Source of the DNA: an uncultured Clostridium sp.
GTDB taxonomy: Bacteria; Bacillota_I; Bacilli_A; RF39; UBA660
DNA: 64,000 nt
Direction of reading: 5' to 3'
NCBI GenBank assembly: GCA_964578175.1
Contig: CAZOBH010000003.1
Coordinates: 10,159 to 74,158 of the forward strand
Shown: in pieces, positions 3,623 to 19,226 of the stretch
Layout: every line of letters starts with the position of its first letter
Numbering within the stretch: position 1 is the first letter of the stretch
Notes under the pieces: model-generated
What the model saw: the letters and a program-made list of their open reading frames with translations, nothing else
The model's database searches: none
What the model was told of the DNA's origin: nothing
Position numbers and translations under genes: made by a program

Positions 3623-4309
3623 ATGCCAGCTGCAACAATTCATAGATGTGTTGGTAAGAAGATATTAGAAATAACAAATATGTATACTGATGAATATGAT
3701 AAAAAATTATTTGAAATAGGTTGTGTTGCTCCAGATAGTTGGAAGAATACATCTAGATATAAAAATTCTCTATTACCTAAAAAGATTAAAAGACGTGCAT
3801 CTCATTTTTCACCTGAAGGTAAATACATAGAATATTATTTAAACTTTTATGATAAATATAAACCTACTATTGATGATCCATTTATGATGGGATATCTAAT
3901 ACATTTAATGACAGATTTCTACTGGAGATATATTATGTTTTATAATTATTTTAATAGAGATGGATCAATCAGGTTATTAGATGGATCTTCAGTAAATGGA
4001 GAGAAAGGTGTAAGAAAAACACTTCTTAAAAATGAGACAGCAAAGATAGCTACTTTAATTTCAAAAGAATATAAATTAAAATGGCTTGATCAATTATCTG
4101 ATAATGAAATAGAAAGATTAACTAAAATTGATGAGTTAGAATACGATGGTCTAAATGAAACATTAATATATGATAATAAAGAAGCAAATGACACCATCGA
4201 TTATGAATTAAAAGTATATAGAGTAAAAGATTTTAAAAATGGTATTACAAAATGTTCTAATATTATTATTGGAGAATTAGGTAATATAGGAATAGCAGAA
4301 TTATTATAA
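3623..4309 (+). CDS. Zinc-dependent phospholipase C / P1-nuclease-like domain protein, cytoplasmic (no signal peptide)
   Basis: ASHFSPEGKY resembles Bacillus cereus PLC ASHFYDPDNGKTY. An HLMTDFYW H-x3-D metal-ligand pattern and an N-terminal IHRCVG segment are also present. Confidence 0.4.
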   Translation: MPAATIHRCVGKKILEITNMYTDEYDKKLFEIGCVAPDSWKNTSRYKNSLLPKKIKRRASHFSPEGKYIEYYLNFYDKYKPTIDDPFMMGYLIHLMTDFYWRYIMFYNYFNRDGSIRLLDGSSVNGEKGVRKTLLKNETAKIATLISKEYKLKWLDQLSDNEIERLTKIDELEYDGLNETLIYDNKEANDTIDYELKVYRVKDFKNGITKCSNIIIGELGNIGIAELL

Positions 4310-4330: not shown

Positions 4331-5968
4331 TTATTTTACTATGTCTTTTACTTTTAGTAATTGATCATATACTTTTTCAAAGGATTGGACTACTTTTGGA
4401 TTATAAAGAGTTCCACTTCCTTTTTTTATTATTTCTAAAGGATTATCTAATTCCTTTGTCTCCATATCGTTAAAATCAACTGCTATTTTTAAAACTTGAG
4501 CTGAAATTGGAATAGAATCTCCTTCAACTTTATTAGGAAGTCCTGATCCATCATAATTTTCTTGATGAAAACTAATCATATCTTTAACATAATGATTAAA
4601 AATACGATCTGTATTTCTATATAATATACTATCAAATATAGTAAGACCTATCTGAGTACTACTATTTATTATTTGTAAATCTTCTTCTGTATACTCTTTC
4701 TTTTTTAATATCTTTTTAGGTAAAGTAAATACACCAATATCATAATACTTAGATGCTTCCGTAATCTTTTCTAATCTTTCATTATCGACTCTATATTCTT
4801 CATAATCATCTGATACTTGTTTCATAATTATATTTGTATAAGTACTTATTCTTTTAAGACCAGTTTCACAATCTAATAGATATGATTTTAATATTACTCT
4901 TAATACATTTTTAATATCTTCATGTTGAGTTAATACAATTTCATTTAATGAGTTATTAGATTTATATATTTTAATTAAATTATTCATTCTATGTTTAACT
5001 ATTGGAACAGTAAATGGTTTTTCAAGAACGTCAGCTATTGGGTAGTTATAAGCTTTATTACGAACTTCTTGGTTATCACCACTAATGATTATTATAGGCA
5101 TCTTTGTTATTAAGTTTTTACTAGCTAAATAGTTTAATACATCGAACCCATCAACTCCAGGCATATTTAAATCTAAAAACATACCAACTATCTTTATCTT
5201 TTTTTCTAATCTTTCATTTAAATTATCATCTATTAATTTAATTACTTCTTCTCCATTACTACATACTTTAACTTTATAAGAACCAATAAAACATCTTTTT
5301 AAAATATCACAAGTAACATTATCATCATCAACAATAAGTAATGTTTTTTCTCCTTCTCCTAAATCAGTTAACATAGATTCACTAACTTTTTGACATAATT
5401 CAGGATAAGAATTAGATAAATCCATAGTAGCATTATTTACATATTCAATAATACCTCTTATTTCAGGATTTCTTGATGATACATTTATATCTACTACTCT
5501 ATTTAATTTGATAATAGTATCAGCAACACTATCTAATATTACTTCAATTTTCTTTTCTAATTCTTCTTCTCTAGGACTGTTTTCTACAGTAATTGATTTA
5601 AATTTATCAGGAGTAATTAATAGTAGTACTACATCATTTCCATCACTATCTTTTATTACTTTAGAAACATTTGTATACCAGTTATAAATACCTTCTTCAT
5701 TTTTTTTACGATATTTACATTTTTTGATTTCTCCTGGTCCAAAATTATTAATAGTAATACAATCAATCATTTCCTTTATATCATCTGTATGAACTAACTT
5801 TTCAATATCAGCAAATCTAGTAGTAAATGCATATCTATTTACTTCTTTTAATTCTTTATTATCAATTTTATATTCTATTTCTATATCTTTTAAAGTATCT
5901 AATACAAAAACACCCTCAAAAAAATCAGGTAATATACCTATGATTGATTCAAAATATTCATTATTCAT
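4331..5968 (-). CDS. PAS-like / REC / degenerate HD-GYP three-domain response regulator. The start is probably M14 of the listed ORF, MNNEYFES, which is preceded by AGGAG.
   Basis: Receiver motifs (LIVDDD...; FLDLNMPGVDGFDVL; KPF). The C-terminus has the HD-GYP fold signature with substitutions (YYDIG for HDIG; FHQENYDGSGLP for HHExxDGxGYP). Confidence 0.65.
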   Translation of the reverse strand: MNNEYFESIIGILPDFFEGVFVLDTLKDIEIEYKIDNKELKEVNRYAFTTRFADIEKLVHTDDIKEMIDCITINNFGPGEIKKCKYRKKNEEGIYNWYTNVSKVIKDSDGNDVVLLLITPDKFKSITVENSPREEELEKKIEVILDSVADTIIKLNRVVDINVSSRNPEIRGIIEYVNNATMDLSNSYPELCQKVSESMLTDLGEGEKTLLIVDDDNVTCDILKRCFIGSYKVKVCSNGEEVIKLIDDNLNERLEKKIKIVGMFLDLNMPGVDGFDVLNYLASKNLITKMPIIIISGDNQEVRNKAYNYPIADVLEKPFTVPIVKHRMNNLIKIYKSNNSLNEIVLTQHEDIKNVLRVILKSYLLDCETGLKRISTYTNIIMKQVSDDYEEYRVDNERLEKITEASKYYDIGVFTLPKKILKKKEYTEEDLQIINSSTQIGLTIFDSILYRNTDRIFNHYVKDMISFHQENYDGSGLPNKVEGDSIPISAQVLKIAVDFNDMETKELDNPLEIIKKGSGTLYNPKVVQSFEKVYDQLLKVKDIVK

Positions 5969-6004
5969 ACTACCAACTCCTATTATTGATTTAAGTATAA
6001 CATA

Positions 6005-6030
6005 CAAATAAAAAAAAGACTATCAGTCTT
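6005..6030 (-). terminator. Rho-independent terminator/attenuator between the REC gene and the PAS-REC-HD-GYP gene
   Basis: AAGACT-gat-AGTCTT hairpin followed by U8 on the minus strand. It overlaps the REC stop codon. Confidence 0.5.
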
Positions 6031-6412
6031 ATTTCATTTCCATAATACTAATAGTCTTCTCTACAATATTTCTAACGTTATCAATTGTAAATGGCTTTTT
6101 TAATACATCTATAATTGGATATTCAAATGCTTTTTCAATAGTATCTTGTCCATCATCTCCAGTAATAATAGAAACAGGTACAGTATTAAATAGATTTCTA
6201 TTTCTCATATACTCTAATACTTGAAACCCATCAACTTCTGGCATATTTAAATCAAGAAGCATTCCAACTACTTCTGTTAAATTATTATTTTCTATATAAT
6301 TAATTGCTTCTCTACCATTTTGAGCTCCAAATACATTATATTGTCCTTCAAACGCTTTCTTAGCAACATTAATAATTATATTAGAATCATCTGCAACAAT
6401 TATTGTTTTCAT
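6029..6412 (-). CDS. Single-domain response regulator (CheY-like receiver)
   Basis: 127 aa. IIVADDS, LLDLNMPEVDGFQVL and KKPF receiver motifs. Confidence 0.8.
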   Translation of the reverse strand: MKTIIVADDSNIIINVAKKAFEGQYNVFGAQNGREAINYIENNNLTEVVGMLLDLNMPEVDGFQVLEYMRNRNLFNTVPVSIITGDDGQDTIEKAFEYPIIDVLKKPFTIDNVRNIVEKTISIMEMK

Positions 6413-6413
6413 C

Positions 6414-6773
6414 CTATACCTCCAAATAGTTTTTTACTATTTCTTCTACTTTTTTACATTCTTCTACATATTGATTAAATCTTGTATTAACAAAATTTAT
6501 ATCATTTGATTTACCAGCCATTTCATGTTGATATGATAAATCAGCAAGATTCATTAATCCTAGATATTTACAATCACTTTTAATAGAATGAGCAAGTATT
6601 CCATAGTTTTCCATATCATTTGTATTTTTATAATTATCAAGTTCAACCAATCTTTGTTCTAAACTATTATAGAATTCAGTTAATGTTTCATTGTAAAACT
6701 CAATATCACCTAATAATTCTAAGCCTTTATCAACATCAACACTATTTTCTTTCAAATAATCTATAGTCTTCAT
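6414..6773 (-). CDS. Hpt (histidine phosphotransfer) domain protein. Start corrected to MKTIDYL, which is preceded by AGGAGGG.
   Basis: AHSIKSDCKYLGLMNLADLSYQHE matches the Hpt HxxKG...G signature. The 4-nt overlap with the downstream REC gene suggests an operon. Confidence 0.7.
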   Translation of the reverse strand: MKTIDYLKENSVDVDKGLELLGDIEFYNETLTEFYNSLEQRLVELDNYKNTNDMENYGILAHSIKSDCKYLGLMNLADLSYQHEMAGKSNDINFVNTRFNQYVEECKKVEEIVKNYLEV

Positions 6774-13519: not shown

Positions 13520-14181
13520 ATTATAACTATTGAAAGTAGTTTTTCTTTTTCATGAACAAGTGTTATTTCAGCACTAGTTGGATACCCTGAACCATCATTA
13601 TCGTATTCCCATGAAAGACTTACTTTATAAGCATTTTGATCATTAATATCAATCTTTCTACTAGAATCTGTATATTTATAATTAGTCTTTTTTACAGTTC
13701 CTTCATCAACTTCTTTTACAACAGGAAGTTTTTGTTCACGATCACCATATACATTACTTTTTATATATTTATATATAGTATCAGTAGCTTTTAATTTAAA
13801 GTTTTCTTTAATTGATGAATGAACAAAATCTAATCCACCAACATCTTGATTAGTTATTCTATTATCAAATGAATAAAAATCAATTACAAATAATTTAGAT
13901 ACTAATAAAGCGTATTGTTCTTCATCTATTTCTTCACTCTCTAATACTTTTTTTAATTCAGTATAATATTTTTTATATAAATCAGAACTATTTTCATATA
14001 AATTGTATTCATACCCATTTATACTTTCAACTTTTTCTGCAACTTTATTTACTTTATTTTCTGTTTTCTTATTATCTTTATTTAAAAATATAAATACAGC
14101 ACCAACTATTAAAGCAACAATTATTAAAAATATTAATAATTTCAAAAATATTCTATTTTTTTTCTTATTCTTCTTTCTCAT
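13513..14181 (-). CDS. Membrane-anchored hypothetical protein
   Basis: N-terminal TM (FLKLLIFLIIVALIVGAVFIFL) and a K-rich N-terminus. Confidence 0.4.
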   Translation of the reverse strand: MRKKNKKKNRIFLKLLIFLIIVALIVGAVFIFLNKDNKKTENKVNKVAEKVESINGYEYNLYENSSDLYKKYYTELKKVLESEEIDEEQYALLVSKLFVIDFYSFDNRITNQDVGGLDFVHSSIKENFKLKATDTIYKYIKSNVYGDREQKLPVVKEVDEGTVKKTNYKYTDSSRKIDINDQNAYKVSLSWEYDNDGSGYPTSAEITLVHEKEKLLSIVIIK

Positions 14182-16322
14182 TAATTATTAGCTCCCTCTA
14201 TAATTTCAGATTCATTTAATTTTTCTTTACTTTCTTCAGTTGTTTCTAATAAATCATATACAATAATACTATTAGATGTACTAAGTAGTTTCTCTGCATA
14301 TGCAGAATTTTCTTCAATATAGTTATCAGGTAATATAGTATTTTCTTTAATCATATATGTTTCATTACGTTGTGCATTATAATAAACTTTATTAGTTAAC
14401 CAGTTACCTGTTGGGAATACTACTATATTATCTTTAGTTTTAAGACTAAACATATCATGTCCTAATTCATACTTGTTATAAATACCTAACATATTACCAA
14501 GAGTTGGCATTACATCATACATCCCCATTACAGTAGTTATTTCCTTCTTCATAGATACTCCCTTTATCTTTTTCTCTTTAGTCCATATAAAGAATGGAGT
14601 ACTTCTATTAAGTTCATATTCATAACTACCAAATTCTACATAATTTTCATCATCTGGACTTAAAATAGAATCTGTTTTGTAATCATAATTATAAAATTTT
14701 ACATAATCTGCTTTAGGAAGTCTAGCATCATGATCTCCATAAAATACTATAGCTGTATCATCAAGGATTCCTTTTTCCTCAAGATTATCCATTAACTCAC
14801 CTAAAGCTTCATCTGCGTAGTGAACTGATTTAAAATAACGACCAAGTTTAGTACCTTCCATATAAGGATAAACATTTTCAACTGTTTCTCCTTTTTCATT
14901 TTTTTCTTTAACCTTTAATGTAACATCAAATCCATCATCTACATAGAATGGAGTGTGATTAGTTAACATTATCAATATAGAATACAATTTGTCATGTTCA
15001 CTTCTTAATTTATCTATTTTATCAACAGATTGACGGAAGAATGATTTATCAGATAACCCAAGTCCTATAACTTCATCAATATCATATTCACTTTTACCAA
15101 TAACTTCATCATATCCTAAAGTCTTATGCATTGTTGCTCTATTCCAATAAGATGCAACATTTCCATGCATTGATACTGAATAATATCCTTTATCTTTTAA
15201 TAATTTAGGAATACTAATATAATGTCTATCAAAATATGAAACAAATGCAGTACCATTATTTGATGGCATTAAACTAGTATTAAAAGTAAATTCACTATCA
15301 CTACTTGTTCCTACACTAACTTGAGTATAAAAATTACTAAAATATAAACTTTCTTTTGCTAATTTAGTTAAATTTGGAGCCACTTCTTCTCCATTAATTT
15401 TAAGACCTATAACAAAGTCTTGTATACTTTCACCATGAATAACTATTATATTCTTACCTTCTAATATATTTGAATATTTATTAACTGTATTCGTGTCTTC
15501 TCTATCTGCAAAGTAATCATTAAATTTTCTAAGAGCTTCATCATATCCAAATAATGCTGATATTTTTGGTTCTACACTTTTTATAACGTCATTTATTTGA
15601 TAAGTATAGATACCATATTTAACTACTATATATTCTCTATTCCATTGTTTAGAAATTCTACTAATATCAGTTGATGATAATGTAGACATAAATATTAAAG
15701 CTACACTTACACCTAAAAGTACATTAGTAAACCATTTATTTTTTTCTTTATTATTAGCCTCAATATTAGTAAAATATTTTCTCTTAGATAAATTAATATG
15801 TAATATTATTAAAAGAATAGGCACTAAAATATATACAAAATCTTTTAACTTTAATATTGCAAAGATTGCATCACTTACATCCTCCCCATATTTAGCAGTT
15901 GATAAAAGTGATACTGATACATATGAAGAATAAAAAGTATAATATACAGAATTTATTATACAAATAAATGCATAAATTAAAGTTAGAAAATGCCAATAAA
16001 TCATTCTTATTTTATGTCTCATTAAATAACCAAATGAACCAAGTAAAACTACTACAGCAAAATCTGCTAGAATTGGTTGAATTTGCCATATATTAGATGG
16101 ATTATTAGTTGTTAAATATCTAACTAATATTCCACTAATAACATTTAAAACTATGTATATAAAAAAGAATAAATTAGTTGTTATATATAATTTTATATAA
16201 GAACCAAAATCTTTAAATACTTCAATTGGATTATTTTTAAGATTTTTAAGAAATTTTTTAAATTTATGAATTGTATTATTTTTTTTACTTTTAATCTTTT
16301 TCATAACATTCCTCTTTATCAC
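14181..16322 (-). CDS. ltaS: LTA-synthase family protein (polytopic N-terminus plus extracellular sulfatase-like domain)
   Basis: Five N-terminal TM helices followed by a sulfatase/LtaS catalytic-domain pattern (IVIHGESIQ...; 713 aa). Confidence 0.7.
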   Translation of the reverse strand: MIKRNVMKKIKSKKNNTIHKFKKFLKNLKNNPIEVFKDFGSYIKLYITTNLFFFIYIVLNVISGILVRYLTTNNPSNIWQIQPILADFAVVVLLGSFGYLMRHKIRMIYWHFLTLIYAFICIINSVYYTFYSSYVSVSLLSTAKYGEDVSDAIFAILKLKDFVYILVPILLIILHINLSKRKYFTNIEANNKEKNKWFTNVLLGVSVALIFMSTLSSTDISRISKQWNREYIVVKYGIYTYQINDVIKSVEPKISALFGYDEALRKFNDYFADREDTNTVNKYSNILEGKNIIVIHGESIQDFVIGLKINGEEVAPNLTKLAKESLYFSNFYTQVSVGTSSDSEFTFNTSLMPSNNGTAFVSYFDRHYISIPKLLKDKGYYSVSMHGNVASYWNRATMHKTLGYDEVIGKSEYDIDEVIGLGLSDKSFFRQSVDKIDKLRSEHDKLYSILIMLTNHTPFYVDDGFDVTLKVKEKNEKGETVENVYPYMEGTKLGRYFKSVHYADEALGELMDNLEEKGILDDTAIVFYGDHDARLPKADYVKFYNYDYKTDSILSPDDENYVEFGSYEYELNRSTPFFIWTKEKKIKGVSMKKEITTVMGMYDVMPTLGNMLGIYNKYELGHDMFSLKTKDNIVVFPTGNWLTNKVYYNAQRNETYMIKENTILPDNYIEENSAYAEKLLSTSNSIIVYDLLETTEESKEKLNESEIIEGANN

Positions 16323-16357: not shown

Positions 16358-17233
16358 TTACTTTTCTTTTTCTTCGTATTTAGACACATTAAGCGCCATA
16401 CCCATAACAAATATATATGATAAGAAATAAATCCACCACATCAAAATAATGATGTTAGAAATATTTCCATATAATGAATTAACATTGGCAGTTAAACCTA
16501 TGTATATTGCATATAGCTTTGTAAATAAAACCCATGAAAGACTGGTAAATAATACTCCATAGTTAACATTTTTTCTAGATATTTTAGCATCAGGTGCCAT
16601 AATATATATAATCTTAATTAACCAAAATATTATAAAATATGAAATCGGTAAGTTAAATAATTTATATGTAATTCTAATATATCTACCAATATCATCGTTA
16701 TGAAAAAATGTAGATATAATTGTTACGATTTGATTACCAAGAACAGGTACTATCATAATGAACAAAAATAATAGAACCATTATAAATAATATACCTACTG
16801 ATTTAGCTCTATCATATAAATATCCTTTATTTTTAATATGATAGATTCTATTTGATACTACGATTATTGTATAAGTACCATTACTAGCTAAAATAAGGGC
16901 TGATATATAAAATATTATATTATTAATATTAGCTGAACTACCTTTTGATATAGTTTCAATCATTTGAACAAATACATTTGGTAATTCATTAGCTATAAGC
17001 CTATTTAAAAATGAATTAGATACATTAAAGTTAGAACTAATAGCAAAAACTAAAGCTATTAATGGTACTAACATAAGTAAAAAGAAGAAAGCAAGTTGTC
17101 CAGGAAGAACTTGCATTTCTGTTGATCTAAAGTTCTTATTTAATCTTTTAGCTAAAGCTTTTATTCTTTTCTTAGTCTTTTTCATTTTATTTATAATCCT
17201 CTTTATTTGTACGCATTTCAAGAGTTGCTTCAT
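16358..17233 (-). CDS. YihY/BrkB family membrane protein. The true start may be the internal Met at 17185, which would remove the overlap with the upstream gene.
   Basis: PGQLAFFFLLMLVPLIALV matches the YihY N-terminal signature. The protein is polytopic. Confidence 0.65.
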   Translation of the reverse strand: MKQLLKCVQIKRIINKMKKTKKRIKALAKRLNKNFRSTEMQVLPGQLAFFFLLMLVPLIALVFAISSNFNVSNSFLNRLIANELPNVFVQMIETISKGSSANINNIIFYISALILASNGTYTIIVVSNRIYHIKNKGYLYDRAKSVGILFIMVLLFLFIMIVPVLGNQIVTIISTFFHNDDIGRYIRITYKLFNLPISYFIIFWLIKIIYIMAPDAKISRKNVNYGVLFTSLSWVLFTKLYAIYIGLTANVNSLYGNISNIIILMWWIYFLSYIFVMGMALNVSKYEEKEK

Positions 17234-19226
17234 TTATAGCATCATCAATAGTTTTCATTCCATCTTTAATCATACTGTAACCTATAGCAGCACCAAATCC
17301 ATATGGTAATTCTTTTAATTCTTTAGTTAATTTCTTAGTATAAGTTTCTATTTGTTTATCACTATAACCAATTAAATAAATTAAGAATTCATTACCATCA
17401 GTTCTGATTAATTCACTGTTTTCAAGTTGAGTATTTAATAATGTAGATGCAGCTTGAACTATTAACTTATCCCCTGCTTCATGTCCATAGTTATCATTTA
17501 CGTATTTAACATTATTTAAATCAACTATAACTATAGTTTGAGGATATTTTTCACTCTTATTCCACGCTTCCATATTGAAGTTTAAATAACTACGATTTTT
17601 AAGAGAAGTTAAATTATCAATATATTTTCTTCTTTCTTCTTTTTTAACCTTCTTAACTACTTTTTTCTTTCTTAATAAAGTATATAAAGAAATAAGCACT
17701 AATACAGGAATTAGAATTATTACCAAGATAATTATATATAATTCATTAAAACTCTTATTATCTATATTATTTCTATTATTAATTTCATTTATTCCCATAT
17801 TACGATAACGATAATATGAATTAGTGGCCATTAAATAATTTAAAATATCAGAGAATTCTTTTTCTTCCCCAGATACCATAAAGGCATAATCTTTTGTAAA
17901 TGTATTTGTATATAATACTTCATAGTTTTTAAATTTAGAATTACGATAATAATTATATACTTCTAAATCAACCACTATTATGTTATCTCTACTTTCTTTT
18001 ATCATTTTATCCAAATTATTAAAAGGTATAATATTTGCTTTACTATTATCTTTGAAATAATTAAATAAGGCAGTATTTTCTAATATTCCAATACTCTTTC
18101 CTTTTAATGATTCAAAAGATGTAACTACATTAGAAGAACTTAATTTAGATATAACAACATATTGTTCTACAAATGATGTATTTGATTCAATATAATTTTC
18201 ATTAGCAACATCATAATAATTAAAGTATATATCTACTTCTTTATTTTCAACTGCTTTTAATAGACTTTCAATACTATCATATTTTTTATAATTAAAATCT
18301 ATTCCAGTAAGTCTATTTATTCTTGAAATATATTCTCCACAAATACCTATTAAAGCATCACCGTTTTTTACTTCATAAGGATAATTTTCAACATATCCAT
18401 AAGTATAGGTTTTAGCTTGTAATGCACTCTTAGTACTATCAGAAATATTTTTAGATTCTATATAATAGTTAAATAACGCATCATTATATTTTTCAACATA
18501 ATCATTTTCTTTCCAATAATCAAAGTACTTTGCTATTATTTTATTAAATCTATCATTTTCATTTTCTGTAGTTATTACAATCTTTTTAGACATTTCAGAT
18601 AAAGTATAATTAATTGTATACTTATCATTTAATGTTTTATTTAAATACATAGTATTTGGTATGATAATTGAATTAACTTCAGATGTATCCAAAGCATTAA
18701 ATAAAAGATCAGCAGTATCATACTTTTTATAAACTAATTTATCTACATTACTTAAATAATAACTAACTTCTGCAGCATCATTAGTAAGAACTCCTACTTT
18801 AGTATTAGATATATCTAATACATTATCTATCTTTTGAGGAGTAGTACTTACAAGTACATATACATCTTCTCCTAGAAGTCTATCATTTTTACCTAAATCT
18901 TCATTATTATCTAATACTCTAAATCTTAATCCTGTTGTTGTAGGATTATTTTCTTTAGAATAACTAATTTTATTAAATTCTACCTTTCCTACAGTTTCAA
19001 AACTTTTTAAAAATGATGATATAATTCCATTATTTTCTCCATATACTGGATAATCATTAGGTATTTCTACATCTACTAAAGAATCTATATTTTTTTCAAG
19101 CCAGTTTTTATCTGTAACACTTATTGATTCTCCATTATTACGATAAAAATAAATAGATAAACCAGCAAAAACTATAATTGCTATTAGAATCGGAATAAAT
19201 ATTATCCATATTTTTTTATTTTTCAT
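17187..19226 (-). CDS. Membrane sensor: TM, ~480-aa extracytoplasmic region, TM, then a GGDEF-domain protein with a degenerate active site (RTDGNEF)
   Basis: GGDEF-domain hallmarks (DNLTSLKNRSYL; DLNNVKYVNDNYGHEAGDKLI) are present, but the GG[DE]EF motif reads DGNEF. Confidence 0.7.
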   Translation of the reverse strand: MKNKKIWIIFIPILIAIIVFAGLSIYFYRNNGESISVTDKNWLEKNIDSLVDVEIPNDYPVYGENNGIISSFLKSFETVGKVEFNKISYSKENNPTTTGLRFRVLDNNEDLGKNDRLLGEDVYVLVSTTPQKIDNVLDISNTKVGVLTNDAAEVSYYLSNVDKLVYKKYDTADLLFNALDTSEVNSIIIPNTMYLNKTLNDKYTINYTLSEMSKKIVITTENENDRFNKIIAKYFDYWKENDYVEKYNDALFNYYIESKNISDSTKSALQAKTYTYGYVENYPYEVKNGDALIGICGEYISRINRLTGIDFNYKKYDSIESLLKAVENKEVDIYFNYYDVANENYIESNTSFVEQYVVISKLSSSNVVTSFESLKGKSIGILENTALFNYFKDNSKANIIPFNNLDKMIKESRDNIIVVDLEVYNYYRNSKFKNYEVLYTNTFTKDYAFMVSGEEKEFSDILNYLMATNSYYRYRNMGINEINNRNNIDNKSFNELYIIILVIILIPVLVLISLYTLLRKKKVVKKVKKEERRKYIDNLTSLKNRSYLNFNMEAWNKSEKYPQTIVIVDLNNVKYVNDNYGHEAGDKLIVQAASTLLNTQLENSELIRTDGNEFLIYLIGYSDKQIETYTKKLTKELKELPYGFGAAIGYSMIKDGMKTIDDAINEATLEMRTNKEDYK

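Follow-up and report, generated by a model that had tools for sequence, protein, structure and literature searches.

Dead HD-GYP domains are known from a few proteobacterial cases and from Desulfovibrio. The published inactive variants include PA2572 of Pseudomonas aeruginosa (YN-GYP), HnoD of Shewanella oneidensis (SE/QLE for the HD dyad and the HHE triad), ECA3548 (HT/ANE) and DvhD of Desulfovibrio vulgaris (SQ/MN). Three of them, HnoD, ECA3548 and PA2572, are precedents for dead REC-HD-GYP regulators that act through partners: HnoD is fed by a multi-component phosphotransfer network, does not hydrolyse cyclic di-GMP (c-di-GMP), and inhibits the REC-EAL enzyme HnoB by binding it; PA2572 is enzymatically inactive and yet has regulatory phenotypes, and both PA2572 and ECA3548 exert regulatory effects without hydrolysis. 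Here we describe a family of degenerate HD-GYP response regulators found in uncultured Bacilli of gut and rumen, about 70 species in all, starting from a 545-amino-acid (aa) member encoded in a 64-kb stretch (64,000 nucleotides, hereafter the window) of contig CAZOBH010000003.1 of an uncultured Clostridium sp.

PmGH holds c-di-GMP by K235 and G237 of its KPG motif, Y285, R314 and K317, and the R314/K317 loop is described as largely setting the specificity for c-di-GMP. DvhD contacts c-di-GMP in a metal-free site through Y621, K582, R650, Y652 and E668. For RpfG, the GYP motif is needed for binding to GGDEF proteins, independently of enzymatic activity, and RpfG of Lysobacter also acts through hybrid two-component proteins in a manner independent of its phosphodiesterase (PDE) activity. 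In the structure of Bd1817, a Glu and two Gly fix a surface-exposed loop, which is described as open to partners including GGDEF proteins. The statement in a preliminary description of the window that degenerate HD-GYP domains are poorly characterised is out of date since the DvhD structure of 2026.

The degenerate HD-GYP domain and its family

The preliminary description had assigned the product of positions 4331-4900 (residues 357-545 and the stop codon, the 3′ third of a minus-strand gene) to the HD-GYP domains. Pfam HD_5 (PF13487) matched the C-terminal domain with E=1.3e-17 (64.5 bits against a cut-off of 27.2), and phmmer and profile searches matched the HD-GYP structures PA4781, PmGH, V-cGAP3 and DvhD with E-values down to 5e-23 (4r8z). 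An AlphaFold2 (AF2) model of the whole regulator, built on 25 homologs, had a mean predicted local distance difference test (pLDDT) score of 81, with about 90 for the C-terminal domain, and the best PDB matches of that domain by Foldseek were PA4781 (4r8z), PmGH (4mcw) and DvhD (9rbz); the match to 4r8z had E=2e-10 and a template modelling (TM) score of 0.75 normalised to the target. Since the Pfam, PDB sequence and profile, and Foldseek matches are all far beyond chance, the assignment is secure.

Ligand positions were mapped in three ways, by phmmer against the PDB, by hmmsearch of the PDB with the family profile, and by MAFFT alignment with PmGH and three canonical HD-GYP proteins, and the three mappings gave the same result (Table 1). 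Five of the eight metal ligands of PmGH are replaced (H189G, H221Y, H250S, H277Q and D305V). The motifs YYD, HQE and GLP are present as it had noted, and the signature HHExxDGxGYP reads HQENYDGSGLP: Gln replaces the second His and Leu the Tyr, whereas E, D, G, G and P remain. Both stretches, KYYDIGV and FHQENYDGSGLP, do not vary among seven strain variants, each assembled independently, whose only differences are at three to four other residues, and the changes are therefore not assembly errors. Its claim that all metal-ligand motifs are substituted was right in that every motif is altered, but D366, D410 and H468 remain as ligand-capable residues. The damage also extends beyond the motifs that it had listed, to the positions of H189, H250 and D305 and to the two nucleotide-binding elements: the KPG motif (K235-P-G237 of PmGH) reads K422-K-K, and the loop R314-x-Y-K317 (RxY[K/R]) is lost by a deletion of 6-7 residues throughout the family. 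All DvhD-type polar contacts to the phosphates and base are missing by residue mapping; two further contacts have conservative counterparts, and for the eighth, Y523, no counterpart was placed, as the alignment is unreliable there. Thus the HD dyad, the full set of other metal ligands, the HHExxDGxGYP signature, KPG and RxY[K/R], as found together in active enzymes, are each broken in a domain that is otherwise conserved.

Table 1. Positions of metal ligands and c-di-GMP contacts, with the residue in the window protein and in the family (PmGH numbering unless DvhD is named; 71 members, one of them ambiguous at some positions)
Position	Role	Window protein	Family
E185	third-metal ligand	D366	D 71/71
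H189	metal ligand	G370	His 0/71
H221	metal ligand, HD	Y409	Y 67/71, F 4/71; His 0/71
D222	metal ligand, HD	D410	D 49/71; N, G, A, S or H in 22
H250	metal ligand	S437	Y 44, H 11, A 9
H276	metal ligand, HHE	H468	Y 36, H 28
H277	metal ligand, HHE	Q469	H 29, N 28, E 9
E278	HHE Glu	E470	E 70/70 unambiguous
D281		D473	D 66/71
G282, G284, P286		G474, G476, P478	each kept 70/70 unambiguous
Y285	c-di-GMP contact, GYP	L477	Y 50, F 18, L 2
D305	metal ligand	V497	Asp 0/71
RxxK loop		deleted	absent 71/71
DvhD Y621	c-di-GMP contact	L477	
DvhD K582	c-di-GMP contact	L431	
DvhD R650, Y652	c-di-GMP contacts	deleted	deleted 71/71
DvhD E668	c-di-GMP contact	S518	
DvhD M646	c-di-GMP contact	M502 (conservative)	
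DvhD L577	c-di-GMP contact	Y426 (conservative)	

A scan of one genome per GTDB species found about 75 loci encoding a protein of the same architecture, in about 70 species, and residues were counted in 71 non-redundant species-level members. All are uncultured gut or rumen metagenome-assembled genomes; their labels include Bacilli bacterium, Mollicutes, Erysipelotrichaceae, Mycoplasma sp. CAG:472 and Clostridium sp. CAG:914, and the CAG-labelled ones presumably belong to GTDB orders such as RF39. The positions of H189, H221 and D305 are canonical in none of the 71, and the four canonical HD-GYP proteins aligned with them have lost no position. With these losses, and with published variants of comparable or milder change being inactive, the view of the domain as non-catalytic was borne out, and it is very unlikely that the 545-aa regulator is a metal-dependent phosphodiesterase. 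The former metal-site histidines have mostly become Tyr across the family, which fits either filling of the cavity or a remodelled pocket. What selection has preserved is E470, D473, G474, G476 and P478, and also I486/P487 and N523/P524, residues that in the structure of Bd1817 form the ordered, exposed GYP sub-domain. In an alignment of 25 homologous sequences (A1), E470, G474, G476 and P478 are invariant. The domain has 11 invariant positions in total.

A profile search of 1.84 billion representative proteins recovered the family as a discrete group of about 15 clusters at 50% identity, and the next matches beyond it were canonical HD-GYP proteins, including clostridial-type REC-HD-GYP proteins that share its YPEYxL and FNPK motifs. 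Since the nearest outside relatives are canonical and the losses are family-wide, the family derives from an active RpfG-type enzyme, and its degeneration predates its radiation. The same search also returned P0193, an 898-aa protein from outside the window with three tandem HD-GYP-like repeats, in which HDxGK reads FDVGK, YDMGK or FDMGK, HHERPDGKGYP is kept and RxYK reads KRWNR; its pattern of degeneration differs from that of the family described here.

All species and strains examined carry an intact gene, and the domain is full-length and free of frameshifts in about 70 species and seven strains. The ratio of non-synonymous to synonymous polymorphism (pN/pS), calculated from 31 pairs at 80-99% identity that are not independent of each other, was 0.14 overall. 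It was highest in the HD-GYP domain (0.215), followed by the linker (0.145), the N-terminal module (0.13) and REC (0.06). Judged by these ratios, the dead HD-GYP domain is clearly under purifying selection. Because ligands and loop are lost family-wide while E470 and D-G-x-G-x-P are essentially invariant and pN/pS is about 0.2, the domain is best described, at the level of sequence, as a maintained pseudoenzyme. Strain-level substitutions were too few for a ratio (7-8 synonymous and 4 non-synonymous between the window and L086 or L087; 1 and 6, respectively, between L086 and L087), and ratios of non-synonymous to synonymous divergence of 0.3-0.9 from all pairs were discarded, synonymous sites being saturated and biased at about 24% GC.

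Gene, domain architecture and neighbourhood

The longest minus-strand open reading frame at the locus runs over 4331..6007 from a TTG and would give 558 aa. This start was rejected for the ATG at 5968, which has a ribosome-binding site (AGGAG) 8 nt upstream and gives the 545 aa of a 100%-identical database protein (P0001), in agreement with independent gene calls in L086 and L087 and with the 545-552 aa of about 50 homologs in the family. Residue numbers throughout are those of the 545-aa form. The GC content of the window is 21-34%; a promoter scan gave 24 promoter-like sites against 27.6 expected, and a terminator scan called none. A weak 5-bp hairpin (AGACT-GAT-AGTCT) followed by T8, which the terminator scan did not call, lies directly 3′ of the stop codon of the stand-alone REC gene, about 40 nt before the start of the 545-aa regulator, and may serve read-through attenuation. 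On the other side, 21 nt separate the stop codon of the HD-GYP gene from the end of a convergent gene, which encodes a 228-aa protein with a weak match to Zn-dependent phospholipase C; this convergent gene and the SseB-like and radical-SAM genes beyond it are syntenic in relatives at 44% identity (L001-L003 and L007).

Table 2. Coordinates of the regulator gene, its domains and motifs, and other features of the window
Feature	Position	Strand	Residues or size	Basis and remarks
545-aa response regulator gene	4331..5968	-	545 aa	stop codon included; PAS-like, helical segment, REC, linker helix, degenerate HD-GYP
PAS-like domain	5594..5968	-	1-125	Pfam PAS_3, weak, E=0.014
Helical segment	5357..5578	-	131-204	three helices (AF2)
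REC domain	5009..5347	-	208-320	Pfam Response_reg, E=4.5e-15
Linker (stalk) helix	4871..5008	-	321-366	single AF2 helix joining REC to HD-GYP
Degenerate HD-GYP domain	4364..4870	-	367-535	Pfam, PDB profile and Foldseek matches
Y408-Y409-D410 for x-H-D of the HD dyad	4739..4747	-	408-410	translation (KYYDIGV); aligned to PmGH H221/D222
H468-Q469-E470-N-Y-D473-G474-S-G476-L477-P478 for HHExxDGxGYP	4535..4567	-	468-478	translation (FHQENYDGSGLP)
Stand-alone REC	6029..6412	-	127 aa	Pfam Response_reg, E=6e-20; same position in L001-L015
Hpt phosphotransfer protein	6414..6773	-	119 aa from second ATG	Pfam Hpt, E=4e-5; His in AHSIKS
Membrane GGDEF protein	17187..19226	-	679 aa	Pfam GGDEF, E=3e-20; 11 kb from HD-GYP gene
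Hairpin and T8	~6008..6030	-		
Convergent gene	3623..4309	+	228 aa	weak Zn-dependent phospholipase C match
BrkB-like protein	16358..17233			
LtaS	14181..16322			

The regulator has a REC domain with a phospho-acceptor Asp directly upstream of the HD-GYP domain, as in the RpfG family. Translation confirmed an intact phospho-acceptor site, D214/D215/D216, D266 (codon at 5171-5173), S296 and K317, and all of these residues are invariant in the 25 homologs. The linker helix between the two domains has a mean pairwise identity of 52%, above that of the HD-GYP domain. There is no DNA-binding domain, and the HD-GYP domain is the sole output domain. The protein also carries an extra N-terminal module of 205 residues, unseen in the canonical REC-HD-GYP relatives of 340-370 aa. 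Its first part is predicted by AF2 to have a beta-beta-beta-alpha-alpha-beta-beta-beta fold (pLDDT about 90), is matched to LOV/PAS domains by Foldseek, and has two residues, D24 and D28, that are invariant in the 25 homologs; a separate model of the module (pLDDT 84) likewise gave a PAS fold and then three helices. The best Foldseek matches of the module as a whole were the PAS-coiled-coil-DHp (dimerisation and histidine phosphotransfer) parts of LOV histidine kinases (E=2e-5, TM 0.25-0.38). A DHp-like reading of the helical segment was rejected, the TM scores being low, the hhalign probability against the DHp domains of the neighbouring kinases of relatives being 0.4%, and no conserved His being present in residues 131-204. 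We therefore hold the description of the module to a predicted PAS-like sensor or dimerisation module. The position of a PAS-like domain and three helices (5357..5968) N-terminal to REC is an unusual order.

Immediately upstream of the regulator on the same strand are a stand-alone REC protein and a histidine phosphotransfer (Hpt) protein, so that a phosphotransfer protein with a phosphorylatable His is encoded beside it. Gene calls also give 119 aa for Hpt, and translation confirmed AHSIKS; its phosphorylatable His (H61) is conserved in all 71 true orthologs. In 67-71 loci, Hpt directly precedes the family gene. Three types of locus were found. The majority, in about 58 species, has Hpt, the family gene and one or two hybrid kinases; the type of the window, shared by L006-L008, has Hpt, the stand-alone REC and the family gene; and the L001 type (L001 and L009-L015) has a gene for a protein of 155-214 aa, the stand-alone REC and the family gene. 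The hybrid kinases of relatives lie directly downstream of the family gene and have an N-terminus that crosses the membrane several times, with HisKA, HATPase_c and REC behind it. No hybrid kinase was found in the L001-L015 loci, where flanks of ±6 kb were examined for L006-L008.

By phmmer, the stand-alone REC scored about 100 bits to the REC domains of the family and about 30 bits to those of the hybrid kinases. Judged from these scores, it is a paralog, by duplication, of the regulator's own REC and not of a kinase REC. It is limited to the subclade without an adjacent hybrid kinase and may be a phosphate sink or competitor. Downstream of the regulator in L016, L022, L023, L027 and others are two tandem paralogous hybrid kinases of about 615-630 aa, and some of the tandem copies had no phmmer match to the stand-alone REC query. 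The gene in the Hpt position of the L001-type loci (8925..9401 in L001, with equivalents in L009-L015) was considered as an Hpt and rejected, having no Pfam match and no similarity to true Hpts.

A regular-expression search of the 64 kb for GG[DE]EF, EAL, H-box and PilZ motifs found nothing relevant, an Rfam scan of the window found tRNA only and no c-di-GMP riboswitch, and no literature linking the organisms of the family to c-di-GMP was found. The 679-aa GGDEF protein, missed by the regular expression, was found by phmmer and Pfam; it has a long N-terminal extracytoplasmic region, a transmembrane helix and a GGDEF domain. In many homologs the extracytoplasmic region matches Pfam SBP_bac_3 (PF00497), which suggests solute-binding-like modules there; this was not confirmed for the window protein itself. 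Its signature is RTDGNEF for GG[D/E]EF, with DLN in place of DxD. A Thr also appears to occupy the position at which canonical cyclases such as PleD carry a phosphate-binding Lys. The DGNEF motif is invariant in 11 homologs at 55-70% identity, in which the GGDEF domain is nearly invariant, and the protein has more than 1000 homolog clusters. From these residues it is probably not a canonical diguanylate cyclase. Data from close relatives suggest that the DGNEF gene and the HD-GYP gene lie on one contig there as well. The DGNEF gene is flanked by genes for a BrkB-like protein and LtaS. For these genomes, HD_5 and GGDEF matches should not be counted as capacity for c-di-GMP turnover.

Possible outputs of the regulator

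We give about an even chance to the reading that the 545-aa regulator is the terminal response regulator of a His-Asp-His-Asp phosphorelay, with phosphorylation-gated protein interaction of the dead HD-GYP domain as its output. This reading builds on features established here from sequences and structural models: the domain architecture, the intact phospho-acceptor, the loss of metal ligands and nucleotide loop, the conserved GYP sub-domain, the operon and the purifying selection. The nature of the output is proposed by analogy with HnoD, RpfG and PA2572, and is favoured because the polar contacts of DvhD are missing while the GYP sub-domain is preserved. In such a relay, a membrane hybrid histidine kinase, whose gene is adjacent in most relatives, would pass phosphate through the small Hpt to D266 of REC, and in the subclade of the window the paralogous stand-alone REC would probably compete for phosphate or drain it. 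The signal would then travel via the conserved long linker helix, upon which the HD-GYP module would rearrange, and the surface-exposed E...DGxG[Y/F/L]P loop would bind or release a partner protein.

Several observations weigh against this proposal. There is no histidine kinase anywhere in the 64-kb window. No partner was identified, and only Hpt and kinases are consistently linked to the family gene in the loci of relatives. The window protein has Leu for the Tyr of GYP, which RpfG-type binding may need, and the sole GGDEF protein nearby lacks the DxD reported to be necessary for binding by RpfG. The HD-GYP domain is the least constrained region of the regulator, and the absence of nucleotide binding is deduced from residues.

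A cyclic-dinucleotide receptor, which the preliminary description had favoured, fared less well. It would be metal-independent and DvhD-like, binding c-di-GMP, pGpG, cGAMP or c-di-AMP, with the output set together with REC phosphorylation. DvhD shows that an HD-GYP domain without metal ligands can bind c-di-GMP; the model here is confident for the fold and for the helices that form the pocket, K422, M502 and Y426 match K235 of PmGH and M646 and L577 of DvhD, the basic residue K505 is close to the deleted loop, and a conserved GGDEF-domain protein is encoded 11 kb away. However, most contacts of both PmGH and DvhD are absent, among them Y621, K582 and E668 of DvhD; the loop that carries R650/Y652 in DvhD and the specificity residues R314/K317 in PmGH is deleted, and KPG is KKK. 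The neighbouring GGDEF domain has DGNEF and DLN rather than the catalytic GG[DE]EF and DxD. A canonical cyclase, an EAL domain, a PilZ motif and a riboswitch are all absent from the window. We consider a receptor of this kind unlikely, and by its residues the domain is probably not a canonical nucleotide receptor. The bound molecule might instead be another small molecule that modulates the regulator, held in a former metal site rebuilt with aromatic and acidic side chains. The prevalence of Tyr at positions 221, 250 and 276 (67, 44 and 36 of 71), Tyr or Phe at 285, the conserved acidic residues D366 and E470, and Y363 and Y408 (invariant and at least 90% conserved, respectively, in the 25-sequence alignment) would suit such a pocket. 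Yet the aromatics may do no more than fill the empty metal cavity and so stabilise the fold. Three of these positions are S, H and L in the window protein, which speaks against a family-wide pocket, and no candidate ligand is known, so that this alternative is rather improbable. A conserved pair of non-canonical c-di-GMP-type domains in one lineage is the reason for considering another alternative, about equally improbable, in which these domains are kept as nucleotide-free signalling hardware and the dead HD-GYP domain and the DGNEF receptor form a protein-protein relay, or in which another nucleotide product is made. If true, an extracellular input through solute binding would be coupled to a membrane-kinase phosphorelay, with no turnover of c-di-GMP. 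Outside that possibility, RpfG-style pairing with the neighbouring GGDEF protein was set aside, the two proteins having DLN, not DxD, and GLP, not GYP.

Residual or altered hydrolysis, with D366, D410, H468 and E470 holding one metal for cleavage of a phosphoester that is possibly not c-di-GMP, is very doubtful. HD-superfamily enzymes with mononuclear metal sites exist. The metal sites of HD-GYP domains are described as heterogeneous, and three ligand-capable residues persist in the window protein. But a shared catalytic site is unlikely because D410 and H468 vary across the family (Asp stands at the D222 position in only 49 of 71, and Tyr is commoner than His at the H276 position), the defining His of the HD dyad is missing in all members, and single H or D substitutions abolish the activity of RpfG. 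Hardly any weight falls on the last alternative, a functionless relic in which the C-terminal domain is decaying and only REC matters, as a phosphate sink. It would account for the highest pN/pS among the domains of the regulator and for the loss in the window protein of H250 and Y285, which its closest relatives keep. Against it stand the full length and intact frame of the domain across species and strains, a pN/pS far below 1, the 11 invariant positions, and a separate stand-alone REC that is already available as a sink.

Comparison with known systems

With the metal site and nucleotide loop lost and the GYP loop under selection, the family is a good system for the role of the GYP sub-domain itself, and as the output of a compact phosphorelay of Hpt and hybrid kinase it suggests that common gut commensals have a signalling pathway that has yet to be studied. 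Among described proteins it can be compared with HnoD, the response regulator SO_2541 of the H-NOX/HnoK network, whose HD-GYP domain has likewise lost the ligands of the HD dyad and the HHE triad. In NCBIfam, the C-terminal half of the 545-aa protein matches the NosR/Hno-type response regulator model best (NF053512), but the score of 82.1 bits against a cut-off of 400 means that the 545-aa regulator is not a member. It differs further from HnoD, a proteobacterial protein, in its origin from low-GC Bacilli, in the added N-terminal PAS-like and helical module, in the absence of the RxxK loop, and in that no EAL partner or H-NOX gene was seen for it.

PA2572 shares the replacement of the HD-dyad His by Tyr (YNIGK in PA2572 and YYDIGV here, with YYN in 10 of 71 relatives), but keeps GYP and has an uncharacterised C-terminal domain; this comparison draws on its published description. 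DvhD (9rbz and 9rc0), fifth in the Foldseek ranking and one of five PDB profile matches, likewise has a metal-free HD-GYP domain after a PAS domain and a stalk helix. Unlike the 545-aa regulator, it keeps KPG, GYP and RsYR to hold c-di-GMP, and it is a membrane receptor of the dCache type rather than a response regulator.

RpfG of Xanthomonas and Lysobacter has the same REC-HD-GYP arrangement and is fed by a hybrid kinase with Hpt, and some of its outputs are PDE-independent and run either via the GYP loop, which binds GGDEF proteins, or via hybrid two-component proteins; however, it has the full set of catalytic residues, and the Lysobacter protein has PDE activity. In V-cGAP3 of Vibrio cholerae (5z7c), the N-terminal pseudo-HD-GYP domain aligns with the family profile over the GYP region and the helices after it, without the 6-residue RxxK insertion, and its GYP is GRP, but it shares its chain with a fused, active HD-GYP domain, whereas the 545-aa regulator has none. 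The pseudo-domain of V-cGAP3 regulates its active partner domain. Bd1817 of Bdellovibrio has a non-consensus GYP loop as well (G-P, with HEE), ordered, surface-exposed and held by conserved Glu and Gly, but its binuclear metal site is complete. Taken together, the family of the 545-aa regulator falls within the known class of inactive REC-HD-GYP regulators, as a new variant that spans a whole lineage.

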